Source: Balanoglossus misakiensis (lineage: Eukaryota > Animalia > Hemichordata). From it: a stretch of 64,000 nt of DNA. The stretch lies in assembly GCA_040954595.2 (NCBI GenBank), contig CM082593.2, positions 3,055,434 to 3,119,433 on the forward strand. The letters run 5' to 3'. Below the pieces are notes generated by a model that had not been told where the DNA came from, did not search any database, and saw only the letters and a list, made by a program, of their open reading frames with translations. Shown here in pieces: positions 1 through 62,836 of this stretch. The position numbers and the translations under genes are program-made. How positions within the stretch are numbered: position 1 is the stretch's first letter; every line of letters starts with the position of its first letter.

Positions 1-1531
1 AGACTGGATTGGTGAAATTCTCCCCCAAAAGAACTGTGGACATTTGCATTTTTGGACAAAGGGATTGTTAATTGAATCGAGAGAAAGGAAACAGTGCAAC
101 CATTAGTAATTTTTAGCAAAGTGTTTGATTCCAAGTATTGTAATATTGAGCTTCAGATTTAAAATGGCCGACTTGAAATAACTAGACAATTCGTTCCATA
201 AATGTCAATTTACTGTACGACTTTAAAGGACACATTTCACAAAGGCTGTAACTTTGTTTTTCGTTGCACAATTTTAGAAAAAAAGAGGGACTAAAGATCG
301 GTTAATGACAGGATTGCTGCACTTGGTTGTCAGCGCCATCTCGTTTGTCAGTTGCCAGGCAATTTTCTTCCCGCCCGCCGGTTGTTAGGTTAGTTGGTGA
401 GGTGTGATAGTCAGGCAATTTGAGGTATATTGCTTTTCAGTCGAAAAAAGGGCGACAACACTCATTTTTGAACGATCAGAGAGAGAGAAGGACAAAGAAT
501 CTGCTTGTCACTAGTGAGCGGTTGATGGAGTAGAAAAGTGATAAAACCAGGGGGAGAGGAGTGTGCGGTGAAAAACGATGACTCGGCGATGGCAGGGGAA
601 ATTAAAATCTGCCGGATGCTCGGGGAGTTTTCCGACACACGGCATCACTTTCTCTGACAAGGCATTTCAATCTTAGCCGAAGAAGAAAAAATTACCGCTG
701 GTGTCAAAGGTCGGCCGTGTCAAGGAGGCATTGGCGAACATTTTCACAGGTGACAGATTCGCAATTTGTCACTGTCAAAGAACGGAAAAGATCTTCAGAG
801 GGGTCTTCTCCGCTATCTGTGAAAATTAGAAAAAAAAGTTGCTTTTGAAATGATAGGTGTTTGATACAGGTGACTCACATCCTAAAGTGATTTCGACACC
901 ACAAGTAAAACAGAGTCAGTCAGAGAACTTGACAGATCCTAATCACACCATCTCGTTTATAGGATATGAGAGTAAAAATCTCGCCGAAATGAATAAATGG
1001 TAGAGACTGATTATTCATTTTTGGCGAGTTTTTCACTCTCGTGTCTACAAGCGGGATGGAAGGTGTGTGTGGTCAAACGTTGATTCACTATATATCCACA
1101 TGGAAATGGAAAAAGGGTAACGAGAGAGAGACTTTGTTCTCTCAGGCAAGACCAGACAAGACCATTATCAGAAAGTCGATTCAGCACTTTGATGAAAACA
1201 GACAGCGTACGCGCTTAATCACCAATTGAATAATTTGTGTTTGCTCCAATGATTACAAAACTTAGACTTGAGTCAGCAAAGTAGAGACCAGGAGTAATAA
1301 CATGAGTCACTAATTGAAACAGGTCTGTTTGTGGCTAACCTGATTTAGTCGCTGCTAAACAGGTTGTGGTCGAGTGAGTGGCGTATAAGACGAGCGCCCT
1401 CTCAAGTTAAACATTGTACAATAATTTAATTTGCGCCGACAAAGTGAAATTGAAAAAAAAATTGACAGACTTGATAAACATTTATTGAAAAATACCAGAG
1501 AACTAAATTTGTAAATGAATTTTTTTTTCAG

Positions 1532-4500
1532 TTGATGGTGGCTGGACAGAGTGGGACAGCTGGTCGAGGTGTAGTCCGCAATGTAATCATATCAGAAGTC
1601 GTACCTGCGACAATCCAAAACCAGATAACGGTGGAAAGCGGTGCGAGGGTCTGGACATGGAATCGCGCAACTGCACAGGGGAATTGTGCAAACGTAAGTT
1701 GTGATTTTCAGATAATGGCATGGCTGATACAAACCAAACCGCCACCCTGTAATTTTGAATCTCTGTTCTACCGCAAAGGATATTGATCGTTAGAACAGTG
1801 TCAAAACTCCCGATATTAGCGACAATTGTGATGTACTGAAATATGACAGAACATGCAGCAGTCCGGAGCGAGAATTCCGGACGATTGCTCGGCAAAATGA
1901 GAGTCATTTCCTGCAAAACTCTTCTAAGTGGGAAATCATGTCAAACTGCACAATTTCCATCGCACTTATTGTAGATTAGGTCTTTCTGCCGGATATTTCA
2001 TTTCTCCGGGAAAACTGTGCTAATCTGTGGATCATGTCCAAATGATTACGTTTGGAAGTCTGAATGCTGTGTCATTTTAAGCATAAAATTCCAACATTCA
2101 ACATCCTATTCAGTAGAGAGAATCGTTTGGGCGGTTGACAACTTGCAACTGTGAGTGAAAAGTACTCACTGTTGGTTGCCTTTCTTTCACCCCTGTTGCC
2201 ATTCTCATACCCTCTCACCACCACAGACCCATATTTTGAATCCTGTACCTGATCATAGTGAATTAGTTCTATTTTTGGCTCAGTGAAAACAAAATCAGCA
2301 GCAGTCATTAGTTGAAAATTGTGTTTGTAGATGCAATTTTGGATCAAATATCCTCAAACAGATCCTGTAATCAGTGGAATGTATGTTATAAAGCAACTGC
2401 TTTTAATGTTTCATAATACCTAGTTAGAATCATTATGGTATAAATTACATTACACTCAATATTTAGCCAAATTAAAAAAAACTAATTCCTCCCGCTCTCT
2501 TCCTTGCTTTCTTTCTACTTTTCCAGGTGCTGCTGGTGGACTTGCTGCGGATGGAAAAGGATCGGCGTCACACACGGAAGGGGAAAATGTCCCCTCAGAG
2601 CCTTCGGAAGGTACACTCAAACTCTGTTGATTTGTAACCCACAGTTGTAATTGTCGCTGGGTGATGTTTGTTTTTAAAACATTGTGTCCCCATAATACCC
2701 TTTATGAAGGGCACGTGTTATCGTAATAAAATTCCTGTTCTGAAATACAGTTGTGAAGATCTAAAACTGCAAATTTTAATGTTGTTTCTCTTTTTTTTGT
2801 CTTTCAGCCAAGAAGGATTCTGGTGATGGAATAGACCTGTACATTGGTATGGTGGTTGCCTGTGTGGTCTTCATGCTAGTCTGCATCTTCGTAGTCTATT
2901 TGATTCATCGGAAAGTCCGACGATCTGGTGTGTACATTGACATCAATGCTTCAGGTATATGTGGGTGCAAGTGAAAAAACAAAATGGCTGCCACATACGC
3001 TTCCCAACCAATCACGTTGCTCCCTCCCTAAGTGACCTTTGAACTCTGTTTATCCGGTCTTCCACTATCCCACAGCTTAAAGAATTTTCAAAAAATCAAG
3101 AAAGCATCATACTTGATCAATTTTATGTTTTTTTTTCAAGAATTAATCTCAGGACAAGATCATAATTGGACAAGAAAAATATTGTGACATACGTCTCACA
3201 AAACAGAGATTCAAAGTTTTAATCCTCATGGCCATGATCTTTTAGTATCGATTTTGCAAACCAGTGCGCGTAAACTCGGCCAACTGAAATGTGTCTAATG
3301 CGATTTTCTATCAGATTATGCCCAATGCGATTATCGCCTGTACAGCAATTAGACAAGTGGGTTACAGCTTAATTAGTTCATCAGTAATTCATTCAGGCCC
3401 CAATGATCATCTGGTCTGTGTTCTCAATCAGCACGACTATTCGTGTTCTCCTGTCAGTCAAAGCGTCCTATTTTCTACTCACTAATTTAATGACCGTTGA
3501 GGATTCACGATGTCACACCTTCCTTGCCACCGGACACAAGAGGCATAGCAACGATAACTTCATTATCTGGCTTTTTCATTCTCTCTAGATGCCACGTTAC
3601 CTGGCGTCGGGCAGAACAATATAAAAGGACACAAAATCGGTCAAGGTGTGATATTCTTGTTAACATTTGTCAGAAGCACATTTTTTTGCATAGTTACGCC
3701 ATTGCATTTTAAGTTTTGTTTTTGCAATAGTTGTGTGTGTTTAATCTTGAAGTGTGTGTCCGCTTGCTTACTGCTCCTAATTTGTATGAGAGTTCAACCA
3801 CAGATGAAACTCGGAAACTGCTATAATATCAGTCATGGCCATAATTCAAATATGGCCGTCACCTAGTACCTCCTCTTAGAAATTTAAGATTATGAAATCT
3901 AAAAGTTTCTTCAATTAATTTGCAGATAATACGCATATGGGTGTTTTGTCAGTTCAGCCAGATGTGACCCAGTCATCCATTGCCTTGCGAAATCAGAATA
4001 TCCTTCTGCCGAACCGAGAATTGGATGACAAGTTGATGATGATGAGCCCTCCCATGTACAGTGCTCCGCTCAATAAGGGAATGTTGTCGGATTCGTGTTC
4101 ACATTCGTTGACGTCGCCGCAGAGCGAGCATAAATACGAGAGTCTGCAGCCAGTGTCGTGCCCCGGCTGCTCGTCCATCACGCCGTCGCAGTTGTCGCCG
4201 CGGTCGTCGCTGGTGTCGTCGTGCTACTCGCCCGTGGCCCCGCCTGAGACGGAGATGAAGCCCGTGCACCCGCTGGACGACACCATGCTGCAGGAGAAAC
4301 TGGACAGTATCCGGGAGACGGACCTCATAGGCTCCTCCACCGACCAGTCGGTGAAAATCTTCCCCGAGACGGAGGACGAGTGCAACACAGAGAGGAGTTT
4401 TGGAACTCTAAAAAGCCTGTCGGATAGCGACTCCCGGCCGGTGTCCATGTACGACTCGGACAATTTAGCAAACTCTGTGTGCTCGCTTGCCAGTACTGCT

Positions 4501-6775
4501 CTCCCCACAAGCGTTGACCCACGCTGCATTGCTTGGGGCATGATGGGACACAGAGGTGGCAGACTGACAGTCCCAGACACAGGTAACGCTTGCCTCTAAA
4601 TCTGCAGTGTTTTCTTTGCAGCTACACATGTATCAAACAGTTATCCAATACAAAAAGTATCTTCAGCGTAAGGAGAAAGGTGAAATGTCTGTAGACGACT
4701 CTGTACCAGTAGATATCCATAACAAAATATGCTGAGAGAAAGTTGGAGATTTTAATTTGAAATTTCTCTCCCTCTCTCTTTCTCTTTCTCTTCCCCCCAC
4801 ACCCCCTCCCCTCCCTACCAGGTGTGAGTGTACTGCTGGCAGAAGGTGCTCTACTCAAAGGCCACACTGAGGAAATTTACATAGCTGTGTGTCGCGAAGA
4901 AAAGGATAGGCCGAAACTCAATCCCAAACAGACGATACTGAGTCCCATCGTCATGTGCGGGCCGCGCAACATCAACTTCAAGAAACCAGTCATCATCCAG
5001 ATACCACACTGTGCAAAATTAGACGAGGAGGAGTGGTCTTATGCCATCTATGGTAGCGATTCACATCCGGAAGAAATACCAAGATGGGAGGTACGGAAAA
5101 TCAGGGCACATACAACCATCTGAAATTCTCTTTAGACACTACTTTATTCCACATAAAATTGTTTAGCTTAGAACTTTGCCCTAACATACATGTTAACCCT
5201 CTGACATTGTGTTCGAATGTGTGTATTACAGAAACTTGTTACATTAGGGGAGGAAACAATAAACACACCACTATACTGCCAGATGGACCAATCACAGTGT
5301 TTCATTATGGTTGATCGCTTCTCCAAGTTTTGCCTGGTGGGTCAGTCGTATCCCGGCAGAGAAGCGGCCAAGATTTTGAAACTGGCGGCATTCGCTCAGC
5401 CGCTCAGAGCCATCGCAGACTACAATATCCGTGTGTATGTGGTAGACGACACGCAAGATGCGCTGGAGGTGAGGGGGCTTATTTTTTTTTTGATGTACAC
5501 AAATCAATGTGAGTCCTTATATTGATGAGAAAGTTGTTGGGCGCTAGAGGACATGATCTGAATGTTTAATATATTTAATTGTCCATTTTCCTTCAGGGTG
5601 TGGTTCAAGTGGAACAGAGGTTAGGTGGTCTCCTATTAGACAAACCCAAACAATTGGAATTCATCGACAGCGGTGCTAACATGTGTCTGAGTATTGAAGA
5701 AATCATGCCGGGCTGGAGGAGTAAACTAGCAGCCAATTATCAGGTGAGAGCCCTCTATAGGCAAGTTTTGTGGGAGACCCTTGTTTTTATCAACTTTACC
5801 CGATGTAGTCTAAGCCAGGAATTATATCAATCATGTATGTATGTTTGTTTTGCTTACATTACTGACTCGTTTTCTCTAGTCAGGCTCATAGTGGACACTG
5901 CTTGGTTGTATCTTCGTGAACTGTATTTGAATTTTTTTTTTACGGTTGTGTTTTTCAGGAGATTCCATTCTACCACATATGGAGTGGCAGTATGAACGCC
6001 TTGCATTGTGCCTTCAGTCTGGAGAGACTCGAACGCAATATTCAGAGAATTCAGTGTCAAATCACAGCGTACCAGTTGTCGGGCGGAATCGAGAAACAAG
6101 TCCTGCAGATTTCAACGCACGTGAATGAGGTGAGTCACCAGGGGCTTTTGTTGTCATTATGGGTTCTTACTGTTGGCAGTGTATTGCATGGTACAGTTGT
6201 AATATTACAGTGTGACTAACAGTTTTTCTTTTCCTGTGGCAGCAGAACCGATCCCAGTTTGCTCCCGAGATGTTGTACGGACACGGGCGGAGCCGCTCCT
6301 CCACAGTCACCACCAACTCCAGTTCCGGTTGCAGTTCCATGACGATGGATCCGCCCAGCACGGTGTTCCGGATCCCCCGGCCGACCAGGAATAAGCTGTG
6401 TGCGTGTCTGGATAGGCCCATGAAGAAAGGGAATGATTGGAGGTTGCTGGCAAGGCAGCTCAATGTAGACAGGTTAGCTTTGTTTTTTCTGCCTCCACCC
6501 CTGCCTTTCCCATGTATTTGACACTCAGAAATTTAATTAAACAAAAGTCAGATTTAATAATGTGCATTTAAAAAAATGATTTTTGTATGTTTTGCATTGA
6601 CAGGTACGTTAATTATTTTGCAACGAAACCAAGTCCTACGGAGCATATCCTTGATCTGTGGGAGGCACGCAACCGAGAAGACAGAGCCCTCACGGAACTC
6701 ATGCATCTGTTGACGGCGATGGGGCGTGGTGATGCTGTGGCCGTCATCGAGAAAGACATGGGGTCGTGGATGTGA
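1532..6775 (+). CDS. UNC5: Netrin receptor UNC5 family, 3' part (TSP1, TM, ZU5, UPA, death domain); 5' exons lie upstream of the window
   Basis: Phase-consistent GT-AG exons: 1532-1693 (TSP1, [26 protein letters not shown]), 2527-2610, 2808-2954 ([28 protein letters not shown]), 3589-3645, 3926-4582, 4822-5090 (ZU5, [21 protein letters not shown]), 5232-5468, 5597-5743, 5959-6129 ([15 protein letters not shown]), 6243/6246-6472 and 6604-6775 (death domain, [25 protein letters not shown]); stop TGA ends at 6775. Confidence 0.95.
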
Positions 6776-9700
6776 GGACATTTCTTCCGAGTCGAAATAT
6801 TGCGGGCGTCAGTATCTGATTGCCTCAAAGTCACAGTATCTCTTTTCTGGGAATAGGATCAAGTCTTCAAGGTTGCTTGTATAATATGCTTGCCTGTAAA
6901 GAATGCAAATGATCTCAAAAAAACAAGGAGGAGATTCGAGTCTTCTTGTCCCGAGAACAGAATTCAAAAAGATTGCTTAAAGTTTTAGAGGTCACTAGAT
7001 ATAAAAGATAACGATGAAGGCCGTGTGTTGTTGCACTTTTGAGCCAAGTTTGTTGTCGATGGAAATGATTTCTGTAAAAAATTGCATAATTGTTTCAAAG
7101 CTCAACAGACTTTCTTTTATATTTTGTACACATCTTTGTGGATTTGTCACAAACAGGAAACGTTTAACCCTCTCACAAATAGTGTCTGGTCTCCAAGCCC
7201 ATTATTTTCAATGGGTGTGGTTGGATCCACTTGTTGGAAATATAGGGGTGAAAGGGTTTAAGTAAAGTTTTGTGGGCACACTGACTGCCATTATTTTTTA
7301 AGTGTTCATGACTTGTTGATCCCCCCTCCCCGATATAAGAAGTAATTTTCCAGATGATGAAGAAGACGAGTATATGGCACATGTTCAACGAGAGTACTTT
7401 TTACATCGATCAAGTTTGAAGTTAGCAGAACAAATAATTTTGTGAGAAGTTAATGTATGTTACTGTGCTTAAATTAATGGAAGACTGTTTCATTCCGTTT
7501 AAAAAAAACATCACTTTTACAGTTTTATATATCTTTTCACACTTTGAGCCGATTTTGTAAATACTTCTATAAGGTGAGTAGTGGAAAATAAGTTTTTGAT
7601 ACCCCTGTATTGTGGACTGGTGGCAGCAGGCCAGGATCAGCTCTCTTTCTCTTTAGATATGGCTGGTTTTGCCATTAGTGAGATAAAAATTCCTGAACTT
7701 TTCTCATGAGATCTCTTAGAGAGGATATAGCCTTTGTATCTCGTCGTGTGGCTTCCTGTTGCTCTCTGTGATATTTAAAGGTGGACTTGATCGACAAAGC
7801 TTGTGAAGTCACGTGACGAGCACAGAAGCAAGGGATGGGATGGGGTGGATTTCAGTTTTGAAATTGGACATAGTACTGTTCTGCTTGTAATACAAATCAC
7901 ATTTATTGACCAACCCAAACACTCCAGTCTCAGATACTAGTAGGTTCAAAGTTCATATGTAGATTTTTTTGACCAATCAAAACACTCTAGTCAGATAGTT
8001 CGGTTTCATGTGTCAGTAGTGGTAATAATCATGTTATTTTCTTGTCAATGACGCAGGAAAGAAAATTTGGCAAGGGGATTTTACGCTATGATCTTGTTAA
8101 ATTGTTTTCCTTGGGCATCAGTGCTTTGGATGATGTCTTTTATGGTTGCATATGTTATGGTTGCTGTAGCAACCGCCTCTACTTCCAAGACTTTGTGTCA
8201 GGGCTTGTCCATTTATCCTGTTTTGGAAATTTATTTAGTTTATTTATAGTAAGAGAACGAAACATCTGCCTGTATAAATACATGTATAAAGTGAAGATTA
8301 TTGGTCTGAGCAATATCAGAAAAAGAAAAAAAATCTCAATTCTGAATGATCCAGTTTATTACAGAATTACTTGTTTGAAAAATTGAGATTATTATAAAAA
8401 GAAGAATTTAAGTTGTCATTTCTGTATGTAGCAATATATAGCAATATGCTTTCAGAGCAATGTAGTATTTATGATAAAAAAGTTAGTGTGGAAAAAAATA
8501 ATTATTGAACACTGCAAGTCGAAATGTGATGAGCTTGAAATCAAAAAGTGGGATCTGAGAGAGTCTTGTTGGTGAACTTGCCGATGAAGAATATTCCAGA
8601 CCTTGATATTTTGTGGAAACACTGGCAGACCTTGTAATTCAAAGTTAATCGCTTGGCACCTGTGATGTATTTATAACTGTTGGCAAAAATGTCAGCTGAG
8701 CGCTGTGGCAGTAAAATGCTGACCCCATCTTGTAGAAGGCTATCGTCCTGTGATTAAAAGTAGGTATATGTGTATAGCGCCCCCAGAGCCTGTTGTTGAT
8801 GACTTTGGGCGGCCATTTTGTAAATATTCACAAATGAAATGTTTCTTTCCACTTGTCAACATTGTTTAGTATAATTTTCACCAGTCTGTGCATATACATG
8901 TAGTTTCAATTGCGTCACAATTAAATTTGATTTGCATATTTTTTACTTGGTGGACAAATGTAAGCATTGAGAAATTGTGCTAAACAGAGACATCGAGACT
9001 TTAATTTTGTTTGTCTGTTATGCCACTCTGCTGTTTATGTTGGCGCTTGTATGTCCTGCCTGGAGCTTAGTCTATTTGTTGTAAGCACACAACTGCAAGG
9101 TGTTTTTTTTCAGTGGAATAACCCGTACAGGTACAACATTATGATGGGTCCCCCTTTAGCATCGCCCCTCCCCCCCCCCCCAAATAATGGGGGGGGGGGT
9201 CCATGTCTTATGGTGTGTTTTGCCTGTCTGTAAAAAATGGCGATAAAAAAATCACAGAGTGCATTTATAGTGTCAATTTAAATTCTGCTTGAAATGATCA
9301 ACATAACTTTGAGTCATCAAAAGATATGCATAAAAATATTAAAAAGAAAGAATTTAAGGCAATGAACACTAGTGGACATCAAGACCACTGAAGGCTTAAA
9401 GAAAACTCCTTGAAATTTGAAATATTTGAGCAAAACTCGTCATTTGCAAACTTTTTTTTAATGTTAGTCCTTTGACTTATAAATTTACCCCCTTGCTTGT
9501 ACTCACAGCCACCCCTTCATTCTAATGAAACTGGCCATTTACATTACAAAAGTGGGTAGGTTGATGAGAGAATAATTCTTGCCATTAACAGGAAACACAC
9601 CTTGTTCCACCACACAACACACTGTGAAATCTGTATGCAGAAATTTTCATTAGTTGCTAGAGTCACTTTTGATCAGTTACCAACCAATGTTAGTGTAATT

Positions 9701-9835
9701 CTTGCAGTGGTTAATTTTGTCAGTAGTTTGTTGATTTTTTTGTTGCCATGGTAGCTGTATTTGTTGATGCTATCAACCCAGTTGCTCCTTTTCCTGTATA
9801 TATATTCGAATAAAGAGGCTTTATCATTGTCAATA
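6776..9835 (+). other. Putative long (about 3 kb) UNC5 3'UTR ending at polyadenylation signal AATAAA 9809-9814
   Basis: Non-coding AT-rich stretch after the stop codon; AATAAA at 9809-9814 is followed by a T/GT-rich downstream tract. The end point is inferred. Confidence 0.5.
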
Positions 9836-11362
9836 TAAACAATTATGGCTGAGCGTCCTCATTTCTGTACATTGTTACGTAGGAGAAGTTTTTCTATTGT
9901 TTTTGTGGCCAGGTGCGCCTATGTTTATTTCTTTATAATTTAACATATTAGCGTGACCAGGTGTTAGTTTTTGGTCGTATCAAAACCATCCAGTGCCACG
10001 TTGTCGGGTGGCACATTTTGATTCTGGTCTGGTAGCTGTGCCGTCGCCTTGGAGGAGTTTTGGGAGCCCACCGTACGGAGTTTGCCTGTCGACTGTGGTA
10101 AATAGACTGGTTTGTTGTACGTGTGCTGTCTTTGACCATTTCAAAACCACTCTTCGTAAAAAAACAAGAATAAGTTTGGGCCTAACTTCTATTTTCAGAA
10201 CTGGTTCAAAACCCGCAACACGCGTTAGGCTACCCCTCGCCTTCGTTTTTGCTCGATTCCTGTACCACGTATCGGTCCATGCTTGCAGACAGTTTACCAA
10301 ATCTTGATAAACTGAAACGAGACGGAGACTTGAATTGGAAAGTTCTTTTGATAGAGCTCTCCTTTTATTACCTCAGAACTCACCTGAGATAATTGTTATC
10401 GCTTTTTCTGTGTTTGTGTCTATCTGTTGTTGGCACGATATGATCAGATTTTGATCAGCTTTGACGTAGCTATATTTTGGAATGACGAGAACTGATTAGT
10501 TTTTTGGTGACAGTGGGCAGTGAATTATGTAAAAAGAAAAAAGAAAAATCGCCGTCATGCAAGACGTCAAGACACTCCAGGTGTATGGCTTATTGGGACA
10601 TCACACCCATTTTGTATCTTATTCGCACGTGTTTAGATGCCGATGATACTTACTTAAATATAGGACCCTTCATCGTTCGAAAATTCTTAATGAACTTATT
10701 TTAGTTTGAAATGAAGATACTTTTAAAAGTTGCAGCTCGTGCTTTTAAAGTTTCGATGGCTATAACTTTCTGCTGTGGTTTTATGTATTTTTGTTTTGTG
10801 TATTCTGTGGTCAAATCTTCGGGGTGGAATCCAAGTTCCTTCCGCAAAAACTAAACACAGACCACATGGCACAAGAGCTGCCACGTACTGTTTATAGAAA
10901 TTTCACGATTTTAGTGACTTTCAACTTTCCCAAGACTTACTGAGAGGTCGGTGTAAACCCGAAAACAAATTTAAATTCATTACATTTTCCAATATTTGGA
11001 CATTCCGTATATATTTGTGGATTTTTTTGGATGGTTGATTTATTTTATTTTCAGTAACACGTTTACTTGCCTAGTTCATTTATGAATGTGTAGGCCCCTA
11101 CACTGCTATTGTGCAAGGGAACAAGAGCTTCCGATTGTAAAAGTCCTGACCCGATGTGACCGATAACCTTACTTGATCTCAACGTAAAAAAACATGTGAC
11201 CTGTTATTTATTACCTAGTCACGCGGGGTATTTTAACAGACGTGCGTTTTCCCCAGTTCTACACGTCATAAACAGCAAAGGCAGTTAAAAAGGAAAGCTA
11301 TCACGTGGCTGAATCTCGGGACAGTTGATTTTCGGTTTCTCGAAAGTAATATTTTTGCAAGC

Positions 11363-12673
11363 ATGGAGAAAAATGTGGCACCAGAACAAAACGACACTGA
11401 AGGTGAGGAGGCTCACGTGATGAAGGGCACACACTGTCCTTCACCCCCGGGGTCACCCCATTTCCCTTGCCCACAAACTTGGACGTTGTTGGTAGGGGGC
11501 GTAGCTGGTAACAGTACCTCAACCCTTTCACCTATCTGCATTGCTTCAGTGCTGTCCGCGTGTTTCAAAACTGAGCCTCAATCTATATTTGCATTTTGAA
11601 GGTCTAAATATATACCACAGGTGGCTTTCCATAGGTCATAGGCGATATGATACATGGTATGATACTGAATTCTTTTCTGAAATAATTTTCAGCTCGAAAA
11701 GAAGAAATCATCCAATTAACGAAAACGCTTATTAATGCCATCTCCTTGAGGGACTGCGAAACGTATCTGTAAGTATTTCTGGTCGTAGTGTATACAGCAA
11801 GCATTTGGGTCTATTACTAGGAATTGACATCAGAATTGGGTTCTTGTTTTGCAATTCAATCACATTTTGTGAAGGTTTTTGGTTTTATGAGTAATTATAA
11901 TAATGTCGGAAAGTTAGTTTCCCATATTTGTGTGACATTAAGTAATGGACCCCTTTCTGTTATTTCTAAGTAAACTGACCGACGCAAACCCCTCTTGCTT
12001 TGAGCCGGAGACTATGGGTGATCTCGTCGAGGGATTAGACTTTCATAAATTCTTTTTCAACAACCGTAAGTGAATATTTTTAATAGGCAAATGTCTGAGA
12101 TGGGTTGGTGCAATGGGAGAATGGCTAGAAAGCCTACTTCTGCTCTTGTCATTTTCATGAAATTATTAGCCTGATATAGCATTTAAATTCGTTCTTCAGT
12201 TCCTAAACTTTCACCCGAGGAATGTGTGACCACCATGGTAAACCCTCTCGTACACTTGCTGTCCGATGACATAGCCTGCATTGCTTATACAAGACTGCGA
12301 CAAACTATGACTGGGTAAGTTTGCTGTAGGGGCTTACATTTAGGGGCCCATTCGCCATACTGAGATTGTAATCTAGCTAGGGGGTCTAAGTGGATGTTGA
12401 TGCCAGTTCCCCTAGCAAGGTTAGCTACATCTCTGTACATACGAAGAATGTAAAGGCACAGTGTTTATTGTGCAGTAAAAAACTTGAAATTCAGAAAACA
12501 ACTGCCTGGGGTATTATTGGTTGATTGTCTGATGGTTTCTCTTTATTCTTTTCCTTCAACCATGCAGGCCGAATAGTTATCAGACTGCAAAGTCCAATGA
12601 AACTCGGGTCTGGGTAAAGAAAAATGGCAACTGGCGAGTTGTGCATGTTCATCGCTCAAATTCTACTATCTGA
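11363..12673 (+). CDS. Stand-alone CaMKII association (hub) domain protein, kinase-less, 143 aa
   Basis: Exons 11363-11402 (MEKNVAPEQNDTE; Kozak agcATGG), 11693-11768 (ARKEEIIQLTKTLINAISLRDCETYL), 11971-12065 (KLTDANPSCFEPETMGDLVEGLDFHKFFFNN), 12200-12314 (LPKLSPEECVTTMVNPLVHLLSDDIACIAYTRLRQTMTG), 12568-12673 (PNSYQTAKSNETRVWVKKNGNWRVVHVHRSNSTI*). All introns are GT-AG and the 432-nt frame is open. Internal exon sizes 76/95/115 nt match the CaMKII hub exons at 61913-62503. Confidence 0.9.
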
Positions 12674-13382
12674 ATGCGTACCCATGACGACCAATGATTC
12701 ATCAAATAATACACATAGGACACAGGGAATCAGTCCACAATTTTATTCATGATTAATTAAAATACTAGTTGCAGTAACATGGGAGTACATGTACACGTTT
12801 ACCAATAATGCTAAAACAAAATACGCTGTACTGTTGTTCGTTGAGGGCACTGTATTACAACACGTCTTCCAGAAGAAATTTGAATGACATATCTTTTTAA
12901 TAAAACTGACAAGAAACCGTTAAGTTTTGTGTATATCACACTCCTTCTTCACTGCAACACTATTTTGATTTTTCTTTGTCTCAAAGCATATAAGTACATA
13001 TGGAATGTGGAATTTGTAAACATCATTCTGAAATACAATGCCCTTCAAAATTTAATATATAACTGATCTGTTTTGCATTGTACTCTTCATAAACATAAAA
13101 AAATATTGATCATTGGTTTTAATATCACCTACTTCGTAAGTGTTATATATTATTGATTCAATATGGGTTTGTGAAAATATGTACATATATGTAATATATA
13201 TATAAAATAATACATACTCTACAAACTAAAATATTAAAAGCAGAAACATTTACACACAAGATTGTACGACAAAACATTAAGGATACCCGCATTTTGACTT
13301 CTCTACGCAAAGCCATATACTACAGGTTTCTTTATGTTACAAATAGCGAAGCGTTTTCTAATGAATTGTTTGTGCTGTGTCT

Positions 13383-15273
13383 TCAATTACGTCCAACGAT
13401 CGCTAGCAACAGCTTCCTGTAATCTCCACTAGTGTCCTCCTCGATCATCTTGAACAGCGTCTTGTGATACCTCTCCAAGAATGCTTGCTTGATTTCAACA
13501 AGATCAATCTATGAAAGTCAACGAAAGACCATGTAGGGTCAATGTTTTTTTATGGCAAAGATAGTATGGCAAAGATAGATGCTTTGTTCTATCTATATTA
13601 TTTATTTTTCTTATAGGGGCAAATGGTGTCTGTTTTCAGAGAGAAAACATCAGCCTTACCTCTGATCTAGTGACGACAACTCTGATAAGAGTGTGGTCAT
13701 CGGTACCTAAACCATGCATCGCGCGATACAGACGATCAGCGAAATAAACAGGACGACTCTTCACACATTGTGCTGAGGAGAAATTGAAAAAAAAAATACA
13801 AAAGATTAAATCATGACACGGCCAGCAGGCCTTAGAATGATCCACACTGAAAGTTGAAGTAAGGTTTCACCTTTGACCTATGAACTGTGACTCACCGATA
13901 GCCATCATTCCGTCACGCACGTCACCTGAGAATTCACGCTTGATGCTGTTGAGGATGTCACGCTGTGAAATCTGTCAGACAGAAATTACGAAAAAATTAA
14001 GCAAACAAAAGAGAATTTTTTAAGCAAACTTTCCATAGTAATTGTGACCATAAACCCACACAGGTGTCTGTAGGAAAGTCTCACACAAAAGTTACCATAG
14101 CAACACATCACACACACAACAAACTCACCATAATATACTCCTTGAATGTAGCTCTCAGCTGAGCGAAGTTCCTCACTGCAAGAATCTTGTTGAACGTCGA
14201 CTCATCTGTTCCCCATTTTCCTTCTCCCGCTTGATACAAATCATTGGCATCCTTCCTTGCCTTCTCTTCGTCCACATCATTCCCTTCATCGCGGTTGCCC
14301 TGGAAACAATGAGTAACTGAACAATTAGAGGGATCAATTGTTACTTTCCATATTAAATGACCACTATTGTAACACTAATAGTGTTCTACTTCATACAGCA
14401 TGCCAAACAGTTCAGCTTTATCAAAACATCTTACCTGACACATTGAGACCAGCAATCGTTTGAAATGTCCGCTAGTATCTCCAATGCAGTCGTTTTCTAA
14501 TGACTTGCCAAATTCTGAGGAATACAAGAGAATATTTCTTGAAATCATATGTCACAAAAAACAAGGGCGAAGTCACAGTTGAACTAAGAGGGGTGGCTGT
14601 CCTTATCAGCTAACTGCCCACCCAGCCCTGAAGCTCAGTTGAACGTGTCTTAAGGTGCCAGCTAGGTCATACCTGTCTTGTAGGTGCTAACTATCTCCCT
14701 GATTTCTTCGTTGGTTCGCGTGCACAAAATTTCAATCAGAATCTCTTCATTGGTACCCAAACCCTAAAAGAAACAAAGATAGATGTTTGTAATGAGAAAA
14801 TCAAAATGATGACAAAATAAGTTGCAATGGCTGAAGTTAAGCATCTGGTTTTCCATTTGACCCATGACCTTTGATAAACCCTGGACTTTAAACTGACCTT
14901 GATAGCATGGTGTATGGACCAGGCATCATAGTAAGTGGTGGGCATGAAGAGCGCCATCACAGTCTCTTTTAGGTCACCACTCAATTCAGACTGCAGGTCC
15001 TTGATCAAATCCTTATAAGGGGAAAAAGACAAATCTCACGTTAATATGTAGTGGAAATAGAAAATCTATAAATCCTGAATATGGTAGTATGAGGTTTGTA
15101 CAGTCTGCCAAAGAACACCCATTTTAGTTATCAAGGTTGGCTGCTCACCTTGCCGAACATGGTCTTGAACTGTAGTTTGAGTTTCTGTCTCTGTTCGTTG
15201 GATCTTGAAGTGATTAAGGTGATGATAGCTTGCTCATCAGTGCCTGTTCAGAGAAAACAAATCTGTCATTGTT

Positions 15274-15326
<53 letters not shown>

Positions 15327-16814
15327 GTGTGTCTGCCTGTGATCATGTCAATATTAATGATACTTCCCTCTTTCCCTCACTTACCCAATCCCTTCATGGC
15401 TTTCCTGATGATCTCAGCATCTTGCTCAGCATCAAACGGATTGGCCGGCCTGACTGTGCCGTGACACTCAAACGGCTGATCCCGTATTTTGAAATCCTGC
15501 TCCTCTTTAATCTTCGCAGGTTTTTCCATGGGTGGCGGTACCTTGGAAGAACAAAGTGAAGACAGGTTGTACACTGTAAACACTCACGCAAGCGTCAGTA
15601 GTACACGGATGCATTATAAAACCATCTCAAACTTGTTTATACCTTTGGTTTGGGCTTGGAAACCTTTTTCTGTACAGGAGCTGGTGGTGCCATCATTTGC
15701 GTATTATCTGCAAGAAAATTTTCACTTGTCAAAGAAAAATTTCAAATCTTGCATCAAAAATAAAGAATAGATGCTTGATATTCTTATATAAACAACCAAG
15801 CCGTAAAAAAATTCTGAGTAAAAACATCAGCCAATTCATACCTGGTTGTGCAGCATAACTTGGAGCAGGGACAAGAGTTGGAGGAGGGGGTTGTGGTTGG
15901 TACTGTATATTTGATGGCGGGGTCGCTTGTTGTTGCTGGCTGTAGATGTTTATGTTTGCCGGTACGGGAGCCACTCCGGGGGTGGTGAATCCAGCTGCAG
16001 CCTGCGGAGGAGGGTATCCGTATCCTGTTGCTGGAAGAAGAGAAAGTTGGAAAAGAGAACAGAAAGATATAATGTTAACACAAGGAAAATTTAAATCATG
16101 CACTCCCTCTGTTAATGATGTACCTCCCACACCTCGAGTCCGATTTTGAATTGGCTTTGTCGAAGTTTCAGGTAGGCAAGATATTGAACTAGACTGCCAA
16201 CAGTCCTTTGGGCCCTTTTTCACTTGGTTTATGATGACAAGCATTCCTACCTGGCTGTCCTGGACCTGCTCCCCAAGTCTGGCCTGGAGGAGGAGGGGGT
16301 CCACTTGAGGGTGGGGGTCCAGGTTGCATCTGGGGTGGGTAGGCTCCCATCTGTGGTTGCTGCGGGATCAACAGGAAATGCAAAATCTGACTGTGAACTC
16401 ACATTCTCATGATCATGACTTTGAGTTCAGCGGTATGACAATGTGTATGTAATTTTGACATGATAATACTGTATAGGTACTGTAGTTATTAAGCAAATTA
16501 ATGTTACATTATATTATATCAATTATATTTTAATTGTTACTTACGCCTGCTGATATACTGACTGTTATGTTGCCAGGCTGAGGTTGGGGGTAACCACCTG
16601 GCCCCCCGGGTGGGTATGCACCCATCCCTCCAGGAGGAGGTGGGTAGCCTCCTTGTCCACCCGGTGGTGGGTAGCCACCTTGTACACCTGGTGGTGGGTA
16701 GCCACCTTGTACACCTGGTGGTGGGTAGCCTCCTTGCCCACCCGGTGGTGGGTAGCCTCCTTGCCCACCCGGTGGTGGGTAGCCATAACCACCTGATGGA
16801 GGGGGGTAGCTCAT
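13383..16814 (-). CDS. Annexin A7/A11-like protein (about 551 aa; GYPP/Pro-rich N-tail plus four annexin repeats)
   Basis: Minus-strand exons 16814-16545, 16359-16251, 16030-15842, 15707-15643, 15541-15385, 15243-15149, 15011-14898, 14763-14673, 14514-14435, 14299-14129, 13971-13896, 13772-13660, 13508-13383; phases are consistent (1656 nt). Repeat motifs [34 protein letters not shown]; C-terminus [20 protein letters not shown]-terminus [17 protein letters not shown] is of ANXA7/ANXA11 type; exact orthology is not resolved. Confidence 0.93.
15276..15326. repeat. (ATC)17 microsatellite in an annexin intron
   Basis: Read directly; it is the source of the spurious poly-His ORF. Confidence 0.95.
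16631..16790 (-). repeat. Coding 27-bp tandem repeat (GGYPPPG[G/V]Q) in the annexin N-tail
   Basis: About 6 near-identical units seen in the DNA and in the translation. Confidence 0.9.
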
Positions 16815-17408
16815 GGTATGGTAAGAATTGTAGGGGGAGTGTGCAAGGAAGCAATCTGCAAAATCAATTAAAATGTGATCATGATGTCAGCTGCTACTGT
16901 CATGTTGTTCAACAATGCCATACGTGTTGTTGTCTAAAACATATCGATTTAAGAATAACGGTGCGCTATGTGCCCCCCTCAGAATGTTTTAAAGATGGCG
17001 CGTTTTGTTTGTTTACAATTTTGACTGGTTGCCTGGACGCCTACTGATGATCGCTGCATTGAATAGTAATCCAATAGCTACTGCAGATAGTGTGACGCAA
17101 AGTGACAAATGCCTAGTGCCTGTGTTGGCGTAACTGCAGGGAGTTATCGAGGAGCTGATCGCCATCATAACGACTCAAAACACTGTTGTTGCTATCCATT
17201 TGAACTTTGCATAGTGAAATGTGATGCCCATTTCTTGAGCACGGTTCCGTAGCTCGAAGTAGGGAAAATAGTTTTTACTGACACAGAAAGACCATTAAAT
17301 ACACAAAAACATCATCCAGTGAAAGTAAAAATTAGGTTCGATTATCTAATATCTGTCTTTTACGTTTAAAACGGCACAGTTCAGAGCGACAGTGAACTGT
17401 ACACTCAC

Positions 17409-17460
17409 CTGAAGGTCGACGTCTCTCCGCTTCACGTCATCCGGCAAATTTACATACGGT
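17409..17460 (-). other. Probable non-coding first exon of the annexin gene
   Basis: Minus-strand donor CAG|GTGAGT at 17409/17408 and a matching acceptor at 16856 upstream of the ATG; CpG-rich with TGACGT-like sites. The 5' end is approximate. Confidence 0.55.
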
Positions 17461-17772
17461 CATGACCTTTTACCTCACGGAACCCCGACGTCGCGACGCA
17501 TCTCGATAATTTATTCACGCACCCACACGGGCGATGGCATTATGATGCAGGGCGCCATCGAGTGTTGGGAACGTACTCCAGCAGGGTTATGCCACGTTGA
17601 GCTTTATCAAATGTTTCATGACATCATGATATAAATTCTTCCGATGATAAAATGATAGATATATAGATAGATATAATTATTATAATAGATATATAGATAG
17701 ATGTATAGACTGATAGACGATGGGATGGATGGTTGGTTGGTTGGTTGGTTGTTTAGATAGATAGATAGATAT

Positions 17773-17825
<53 letters not shown>

Positions 17826-17829
17826 GAAA

Positions 17830-17892
<63 letters not shown>

Positions 17893-18204
17893 AAAAATAA
17901 ATAAAAAAAAAGTGATGAGCTAAAACAAAGTAACTTTGGTATGATAATTTTATATGGACATTTGTGGAAATCTATTTATGTTGTGACAAAGCTCACTATC
18001 AATTCTAGAGAGCATGCATTTCCGCTATGTGCTTTATTTTACTTTTAGTTCCGTAATTCGGTGCAACGGCCGTTGTCTCGACTTCTACGTAGTATTACTA
18101 TCGCTCTGTATAAACACTATTCATCTGACCACACCCCCTTCTGTAAATGGTAGCACCCTCTTCATTATCTGTCAATCATCAATTAATATCATGTTCATTT
18201 CAAA
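17461..18204. promoter_or_regulatory. Divergent (bidirectional) promoter region between annexin and CaMKII
   Basis: About 750 bp between the annexin first exon (-) and the CaMKII ATG (+); CpG-rich flanks with a central microsatellite block. Confidence 0.55.
17655..17905. repeat. Compound microsatellite (GATA)n/(GGTT)n/(GACA)n/(AAAT)n
   Basis: Read directly. Confidence 0.95.

Positions 18205-62836
<44,632 letters not shown>

Follow-up and report, generated by a model that had tools for sequence, protein, structure and literature searches.

Can the association domain (hub) of CaMKII be encoded, free of any kinase, by a gene of its own in an animal that retains the intact enzyme, and what would such a subunit do there? 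The question is raised by a locus of the acorn worm Balanoglossus misakiensis, analysed here in a window of 64,000 nucleotides (the whole stretch of DNA that was examined), in which an earlier note had described a hub-only paralog next to CaMKII. CaMKII switching needs kinase domains placed side by side on the ring, and subunit exchange is disputed (PMC10468207 and 10.64898/2026.07.27.741023, in their accessible parts), while the kinase-less hubs in print are either CAMK2A's own product or belong to organisms without CaMKII. On sequence evidence, we put the probability that the hub-only gene is functional and expressed at about 0.88, with even odds that its main role would be co-assembly with CaMKII as a catalytically empty subunit.

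Organization of the locus

1..6775, + strand: UNC5-type gene, 3' part (ZU5, UPA and Death domains), with a candidate polyA signal at 9809
9850..11350, no strand assigned: putative promoter region, CpG observed/expected 1.0 against a window mean of 0.58
11243..11257, + strand: possible splice acceptor ahead of the ATG, in open frame, for a 5'UTR intron or an extended N-terminus
11363..11402, + strand: hub-only exon 1, with the ATG, a 13-aa hydrophilic, mildly acidic leader and a phase-1 donor
11693..11768, + strand: hub-only exon 2 (76 nt), hub N-terminal helix; PF08332 positions 1–24, E 0.018
11971..12065, + strand: hub-only exon 3 (95 nt), F394 and H395 equivalents, AAG acceptor; PF08332 E 1.2e-6
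12200..12314, + strand: hub-only exon 4 (115 nt), H420, R433 and Q436 equivalents; PF08332 E 1.8e-5
12568..12673, + strand: hub-only exon 5, coding part (106 nt) to the TGA, R453, H466, H468, R469 and S470 equivalents; PF08332 E 1.7e-8
12899..12904, + strand: candidate polyadenylation signal AATAAA, 225 nt past the hub-only stop, its use being presumed
13401..17410, − strand: annexin gene situated between hub-only gene and CaMKII, its product rich in Gly/Tyr/Pro at the N-terminus; position of the 5' end approximate
18205..62836, + strand: intact full-length CaMKII, a 17-exon, 477-aa model with all introns GT-AG

Gene order is thus UNC5-type (+), hub-only (+), annexin (−) and CaMKII (+), so that the description of the gene as next to CaMKII holds in that both lie in the window, but needs amending in that an opposite-strand annexin gene intervenes and CaMKII starts at 18205. 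Splicing by coordinates reproduced the claimed anatomy of the hub-only gene (11363–12673, +) in every respect: five exons of 40, 76, 95, 115 and 106 nt, joined across four GT-AG introns of phases 1, 2, 1 and 2, give an open frame of 143 codons plus stop that encodes a 13-aa leader and a complete CaMKII hub, and the leader is acidic as had been stated (four D/E against one K/R in 13 residues). The four hub exons map in order to PF08332 positions 1–24, 26–56, 65–92 and 100–127, and three of them singly pass the curated cut-off of this family, the 25-aa exon 2 falling below it. Greatest divergence is found in the 5' loop of exon 4. Exon 1 is the top-scoring of six candidates running from an ATG to a phase-1 donor and scoring above 4 in 6776–11660. 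Splice sites were scored with a crude matrix derived from 23 donors and 22 acceptors of the window (one CaMKII exon in the training set being off by a base and the UNC5 exons unverified), and its rough scores place the hub-only donors at the 82nd–99.6th and the acceptors at the 77th–91st percentile of all GT/AG sites. The exon-3 acceptor reads AAG, against CAG or TAG at all 16 modelled CaMKII acceptors.

Since a candidate acceptor at 11257 lies in an open frame upstream of the ATG, the N-terminus of the predicted protein is not certain. The 1.5 kb preceding the ATG have a CpG observed/expected ratio of 1.0, compared with 0.40 for the 3' region of UNC5; seven of 250 1.5-kb windows are as high as the former, all around the region in which annexin and CaMKII stand head to head. 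Together with the downstream AATAAA, this CpG-retaining stretch would fit an independent transcription unit, without proving one. The minus strand has a further AATAAA at 12742, and the 3'UTRs of the hub-only and annexin genes may overlap antisense (12674–12920).

Matches to kinase exons are confined to 18205–53192 in the window, and tblastn over 6776–11362, between the UNC5 stop and the hub-only ATG, found no kinase or regulatory exon (best E = 3.0), which agrees with the reported lack of kinase and CaM-binding exons back to UNC5. As all kinase exons lie downstream of the hub-only exons, splicing of the latter to them is impossible. The full-length CaMKII itself is highly conserved, sharing 472 of 477 residues with P0003 of Ptychodera flava, 466 with Glandiceps talaboti and 453 with Saccoglossus.

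Origin by duplication and selective constraint

The last CaMKII exons (61913–62836) likely represent the source of the duplicated hub. Exon sizes of 76, 95 and 115 nt and intron phases are the same in both genes, some 50 kb apart, and a gap-free alignment of the hubs has 62 of 126 identical residues (49%), both as earlier claimed. The introns had been called unrelated, and indeed no intron pair aligns better than shuffled sequence, with 125, 32, 200 and 164 of 200 shuffles reaching the observed alignment scores. The hub-only frame has nevertheless kept 126 codons free of indels relative to the CaMKII hub, while its introns became unalignable. Identity at the three codon positions is 0.60, 0.78 and 0.45, where neutrality would predict about 0.73 throughout. 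Second-position matches outnumber those at third positions by 41, a margin that never exceeded 21 in 2000 neutral runs. When neutral change was simulated to equal protein divergence, 56 of 2000 runs remained stop-free, and the replacements seen in the hub are more conservative than those of 1947 out of 2000 such runs. With 0.34 substitutions per site, stops were absent from 159 of 5000 runs, a single one also retaining all splice dinucleotides, and with 0.5 or 0.8 none of 5000 runs each kept frame and splice dinucleotides; as indels were left out, these simulations are conservative. Comparison of the two hubs gave a dN of 0.40 against a dS of 1.59, and with only five of 26 four-fold sites identical dS must be regarded as saturated. 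The hub-only gene is under purifying selection.

This constraint is looser than that on CaMKII, since the hub-only protein keeps 39 of the 61 columns that do not vary across 22 other rows (the comparison including 21 of 120 proteins, picked at one or two per taxon), and omega on the hub-only branch could reach about 0.5 if all amino-acid change is assigned to it and silent change is split evenly. Shared introns, saturated silent sites and the neutral simulations, together with the acorn-worm relatives described below, support the earlier proposal of an old, partial, DNA-level duplication kept by selection, likely of the final CaMKII exons and within acorn worms. Three other explanations were rejected: an assembly or haplotype duplication by the 49% identity, the unalignable introns and the counterparts in other species; a retrocopy by the presence of all introns; and a CaMKII product of an internal promoter, of the alphaKAP type, by the separate exon set 50 kb upstream, which has UNC5 upstream of it and is separated from CaMKII by the annexin gene.

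Relatives in other acorn worms

Relatives were sought with a profile of hub-only exons 4 and 5 against 1.84 billion representatives, which returned 60 hits. In a check of this query, simulated 60%-identical orthologs scored 41–62 bits against up to 40.4 bits for 120 ordinary CaMKII proteins; a profile scaffolded on the CaMKII hub was dropped, as ordinary CaMKII outranked the simulated orthologs. No close ortholog was found among the 1.84 billion representatives, in which members of 50% clusters are not visible, the hub-containing hits reaching at most 43.2 bits. Searches by words from hub-only exons 4 and 3 gave two candidates each, none with E <= 10, and among the ten matches listed by the ESM Atlas only bacterial NTF2/DUF4440-type clusters appeared, at 0.93, an uninformative result. 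The highest whole-hub identities to the hub-only protein among the profile hits were 51.5% (P0140), 51.2% (P0163) and 50.4% (P0154).

Two of these hits led to kinase-less models in other acorn worms. P0154 corresponds to XP_070545064.1, a 166-aa P. flava model, and P0140 with its cluster mate P0181 to XP_077999528.1 and XP_077999218.1, 146-aa models of G. talaboti; all three (146–166 aa) contain PF08332 and overlapping NTF2-like families only. Named 'CaMKII delta chain-like' in RefSeq, these one P. flava and two Glandiceps models, reported here as kinase-less hubs for the first time, had been hidden by ordinary CaMKII names. They sit on contigs equal in size to those of their own species' CaMKII (18,482,504 and 35,945,698), and the P. 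flava accession precedes the first CaMKII isoform (XP_070545076) by 12 numbers, those of Glandiceps being 84 and 221 off, which hints at linkage to CaMKII. Known as protein records, the models may be products of truncated annotation. No Saccoglossus copy was present among the 18 of 60 hits inspected.

The Balanoglossus protein shares 63/122 residues (52%) with the P. flava copy and 64–66/124 with the Glandiceps copies, and is no closer to them than to CaMKII hubs (60–64/126), whereas the CaMKII hubs of Balanoglossus and P. flava are identical at 125 of 126 positions. The Glandiceps copies are much nearer CaMKII (85–92/124). One of P0140 and P0181 is identical to CaMKII over a 27-residue C-terminal stretch from which two cavity arginines are missing in the other, possibly by gene conversion or by decay of one copy. 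Two diverged kinase-less hub proteins from other sources, P0132 and P0163, are 48% and 55% identical to the Balanoglossus CaMKII hub, and possibly represent independent hub-only genes, perhaps of animals, or fragments.

The RefSeq models are likely orthologs or parallel copies of the hub-only gene. Orthology would rest on rare shared changes, which favour one clade: Q348E is found in all four hub-only rows and none of 33 others, and L415V in all four and one of 33. Balanoglossus and P. flava copies share six unique and nine rare residues, Balanoglossus and Glandiceps copies two to three unique and five to seven rare ones, and the Balanoglossus protein and any other row at most two unique and five rare (P0163). 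The hub-domain phylogeny proposed in the earlier note grouped the Balanoglossus and P. flava copies (support 81/89, 17/37 rows, two long branches meeting), but a single origin does not follow from the trees. The four-copy clade is absent from the best tree (p-AU 0.44, 17/37 rows), a recent sister relationship of the hub-only protein to its own CaMKII has p-AU 0.30, and AU tests rejected no alternative tried; another tree dropped six near-redundant rows. When the P. flava copy was omitted, Balanoglossus and Glandiceps copies grouped with support 59/78. At D393 and C428 the Balanoglossus copy has the general animal state and the Glandiceps copies have acorn-worm CaMKII residues, so that a single origin needs gene conversion or reversion, failing which a second duplication must be assumed.

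Retention and loss of hub residues

Residues are numbered as in human alpha; contact positions were taken from PMC11199487, and those of the cavity and the histidines from 10.1101/536094, both sources accessible in part, with the roles of H395 and H418 assigned from sequence rather than from papers. Identity to its own CaMKII is enriched at literature-named contact and cavity positions, at 15 of 20 against 47 of 106 elsewhere (Fisher p 0.011). All three cavity arginines (R433, R453, R469), which according to the accessible part of 10.1101/536094 set CaMKII hubs apart from other NTF2-like folds, are kept, as are five of the six residues of the vertical-dimer set (H420, H466, H468, T378, T452, S470), the sixth being changed as T378S. 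Of the other hub histidines H395 is retained and H418 lost. The lateral contact is identical to that of CaMKII at six of nine positions, including F394, Q436, 434 and F397, the four top-ranked residues of this contact (PMC11199487, in the part consulted); the differences are L415V, I438M and P444Y, and L415A was without effect in alpha according to the same part.

Elsewhere the hub has changed considerably. Alterations affect 22 of the 61 columns that show no variation among the 22 other rows, including H418L, P444Y, I438M, L415V and E355K, and E355K, I414M and F467V fall on three of the six ring-size sites at which mutation enlarged the human alpha ring (10.1101/536094, accessible part). F394, Q436, L434, H466 and H468 are kept in all four acorn-worm copies; both Glandiceps copies lack H420 and one also lacks two cavity arginines. 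Judged by its kept assembly residues the hub-only protein should still oligomerise, yet its partner is not readable from them, since the same residues would fit rings of its own, CaMKII rings or both.

A possible role and its alternatives

On the co-assembly reading, the gene would be transcribed from its own CpG-rich promoter, and its product would fold as a hub, entering vertical-dimer and lateral contacts through the kept H420/H466/H468 and F394/Q436 equivalents. Mixed rings would then carry fewer kinase domains per holoenzyme, which would weaken neighbour-to-neighbour autophosphorylation, and ring size or targeting could shift. The predicted fold of the P. flava model, taken as a stand-in, has a hub pLDDT of 85–97 and an rmsd of 1.1–1.9 Å to chains of PDB 2W2C, 5IG4 and 7URW, a modelled hub fold such as the alignment of hubs leads one to expect. 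Kinase-dead subunits can act dominant-negatively by a mechanism that is unclear (PMC11088445, accessible part), and such an effect is not to be assumed here. Counted against co-assembly are the mere 49% identity to the presumed partner, the fast drift of the hub-only copies beside a near-fixed CaMKII, which is odd for an obligate partner, and the kept residues, which would serve self-assembly equally well. A functional gene whose product forms a ring or dimer and works independently of CaMKII, serving as a multivalent scaffold or binding a ligand in its three-arginine cavity, is a possible but rather doubtful reading, to which the evidence for selection applies in the same way. Retention of the cavity arginines in the Balanoglossus and P. 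flava copies, rapid divergence from CaMKII and differences at ring-size sites 355, 414 and 467, with I414M an algal-type change, all speak for it, as does the basal binding of GluN2B by an isolated 12-meric hub (PMC12236485, accessible part), by which a hub can act alone. However, the stand-alone hubs of algae and bacteria come from genomes without CaMKII kinase (10.1101/536094, in the part available), while here CaMKII coexists, and with the top lateral residues F394, Q436, 434 and F397 equal to those of its own CaMKII, exclusion from CaMKII rings would require other changes.

An alphaKAP-like anchored or secreted form, in which an unseen upstream exon supplies a longer N-terminus that targets the hub and CaMKII to membranes, appears improbable. 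It draws on a hydrophobic pre-hub stretch in the P. flava model (best 11-residue Kyte-Doolittle mean 2.79, against 0.89 in Glandiceps) and on the candidate acceptor at 11257 in its open upstream frame, but the Balanoglossus leader is hydrophilic (−1.69), none of the six candidate phase-1 first exons is hydrophobic, both Glandiceps models have short polar leaders, and the P. flava extension may be translated 5'UTR, as a Met directly precedes the hub. We give equally little credence to a decaying or silent duplicate, its frame open by chance or its constraint lost recently. The long branch (about 1.0 change per column), the weak AAG acceptor and the middling splice scores of the crude matrix would suit such a relic, yet one in 5000 neutral runs at matched divergence, indels not counted, preserved the gene, identity is enriched at contact sites, the models of two other species are intact and have rare substitutions in common with it, and the upstream region retains CpG. 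The wider form of the co-assembly reading, that acorn worms evolved a fast-evolving family of independently expressed, kinase-free subunit genes setting the number of active kinases per ring, and perhaps ring size or location, is put forward tentatively, at somewhat below even odds.

Comparison with known kinase-less hubs

The nearest functional parallel is alphaKAP, which assembles with CaMKII into heteromultimers and redirects the kinase (PMC5882894 and PMC9913510, accessible parts). Both proteins comprise a complete association domain without kinase beside a full-length CaMKII, but alphaKAP arises from an alternative CaMKII-alpha promoter and contains the kinase's own hub, whereas a separate gene encodes a 49% identical hub here. 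The contrast drawn earlier with the membrane anchor of alphaKAP stands for the non-hydrophobic leader in Balanoglossus and for the Glandiceps models, but does not extend to P. flava, given its hydrophobic pre-hub stretch. Algal (Chlamydomonas, Volvox, Gonium; PDB 6OF9) and bacterial (Pirellula, Planctopirus) hubs resemble the hub-only protein in being encoded alone by a gene of their own and in keeping the three cavity arginines and the interface histidines, and are about 50% identical to animal hubs (10.1101/536094, accessible part). They differ in that their genomes lack CaMKII kinase, whereas the hub-only gene coexists with an intact 477-aa CaMKII, has the intron positions of this adjoining animal gene and arose from it.

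Kinase-less hubs also occur as animal protein models, namely P0131 and P0137 of Caenorhabditis briggsae (one locus tag) and P0076 (Apis isoform X33). These are near-canonical, with the CaMKII linker upstream in P0131, and their sequences suggest isoforms or fragments derived from the main CaMKII gene, unlike the diverged hub-only gene. In the literature searched (titles and abstract openings, with few subscription journals and no supplements) no separate hub-only animal gene was found, nor any work on P. flava and CaMKII. If the wider form of the co-assembly reading is true, the locus would encode a tuner of CaMKII cooperativity and molecular memory. A separate hub-only gene, maintained by selection beside a functional CaMKII, would offer a natural tool for studying kinase dilution and subunit exchange, and copies at 52–75% identity to a near-invariant partner would show how far a co-assembling hub can drift.

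Additional features of the CaMKII gene

Annexin and CaMKII stand head to head over a CpG-retaining region (17400–18900, observed/expected 1.28), probably a bidirectional promoter of two calcium-signalling genes. Two 73-nt copies of the CaMKII kinase exon with the HRD motif (47782–47854 and 47940–48012) are both open with AG/GT ends, likely reflecting mutually exclusive splicing within the kinase domain. Small linker exons matching acorn-worm isoforms lie at about 55043–55084, 57866–57895 and 59438–59557, and 53194–61713 may contain further alternative ones. CaMKII intron 3 contains a long TACA microsatellite (about 26890–27650) and a 185-bp imperfect palindrome (28070–28254), 87% self-complementary and possibly a miniature transposon.
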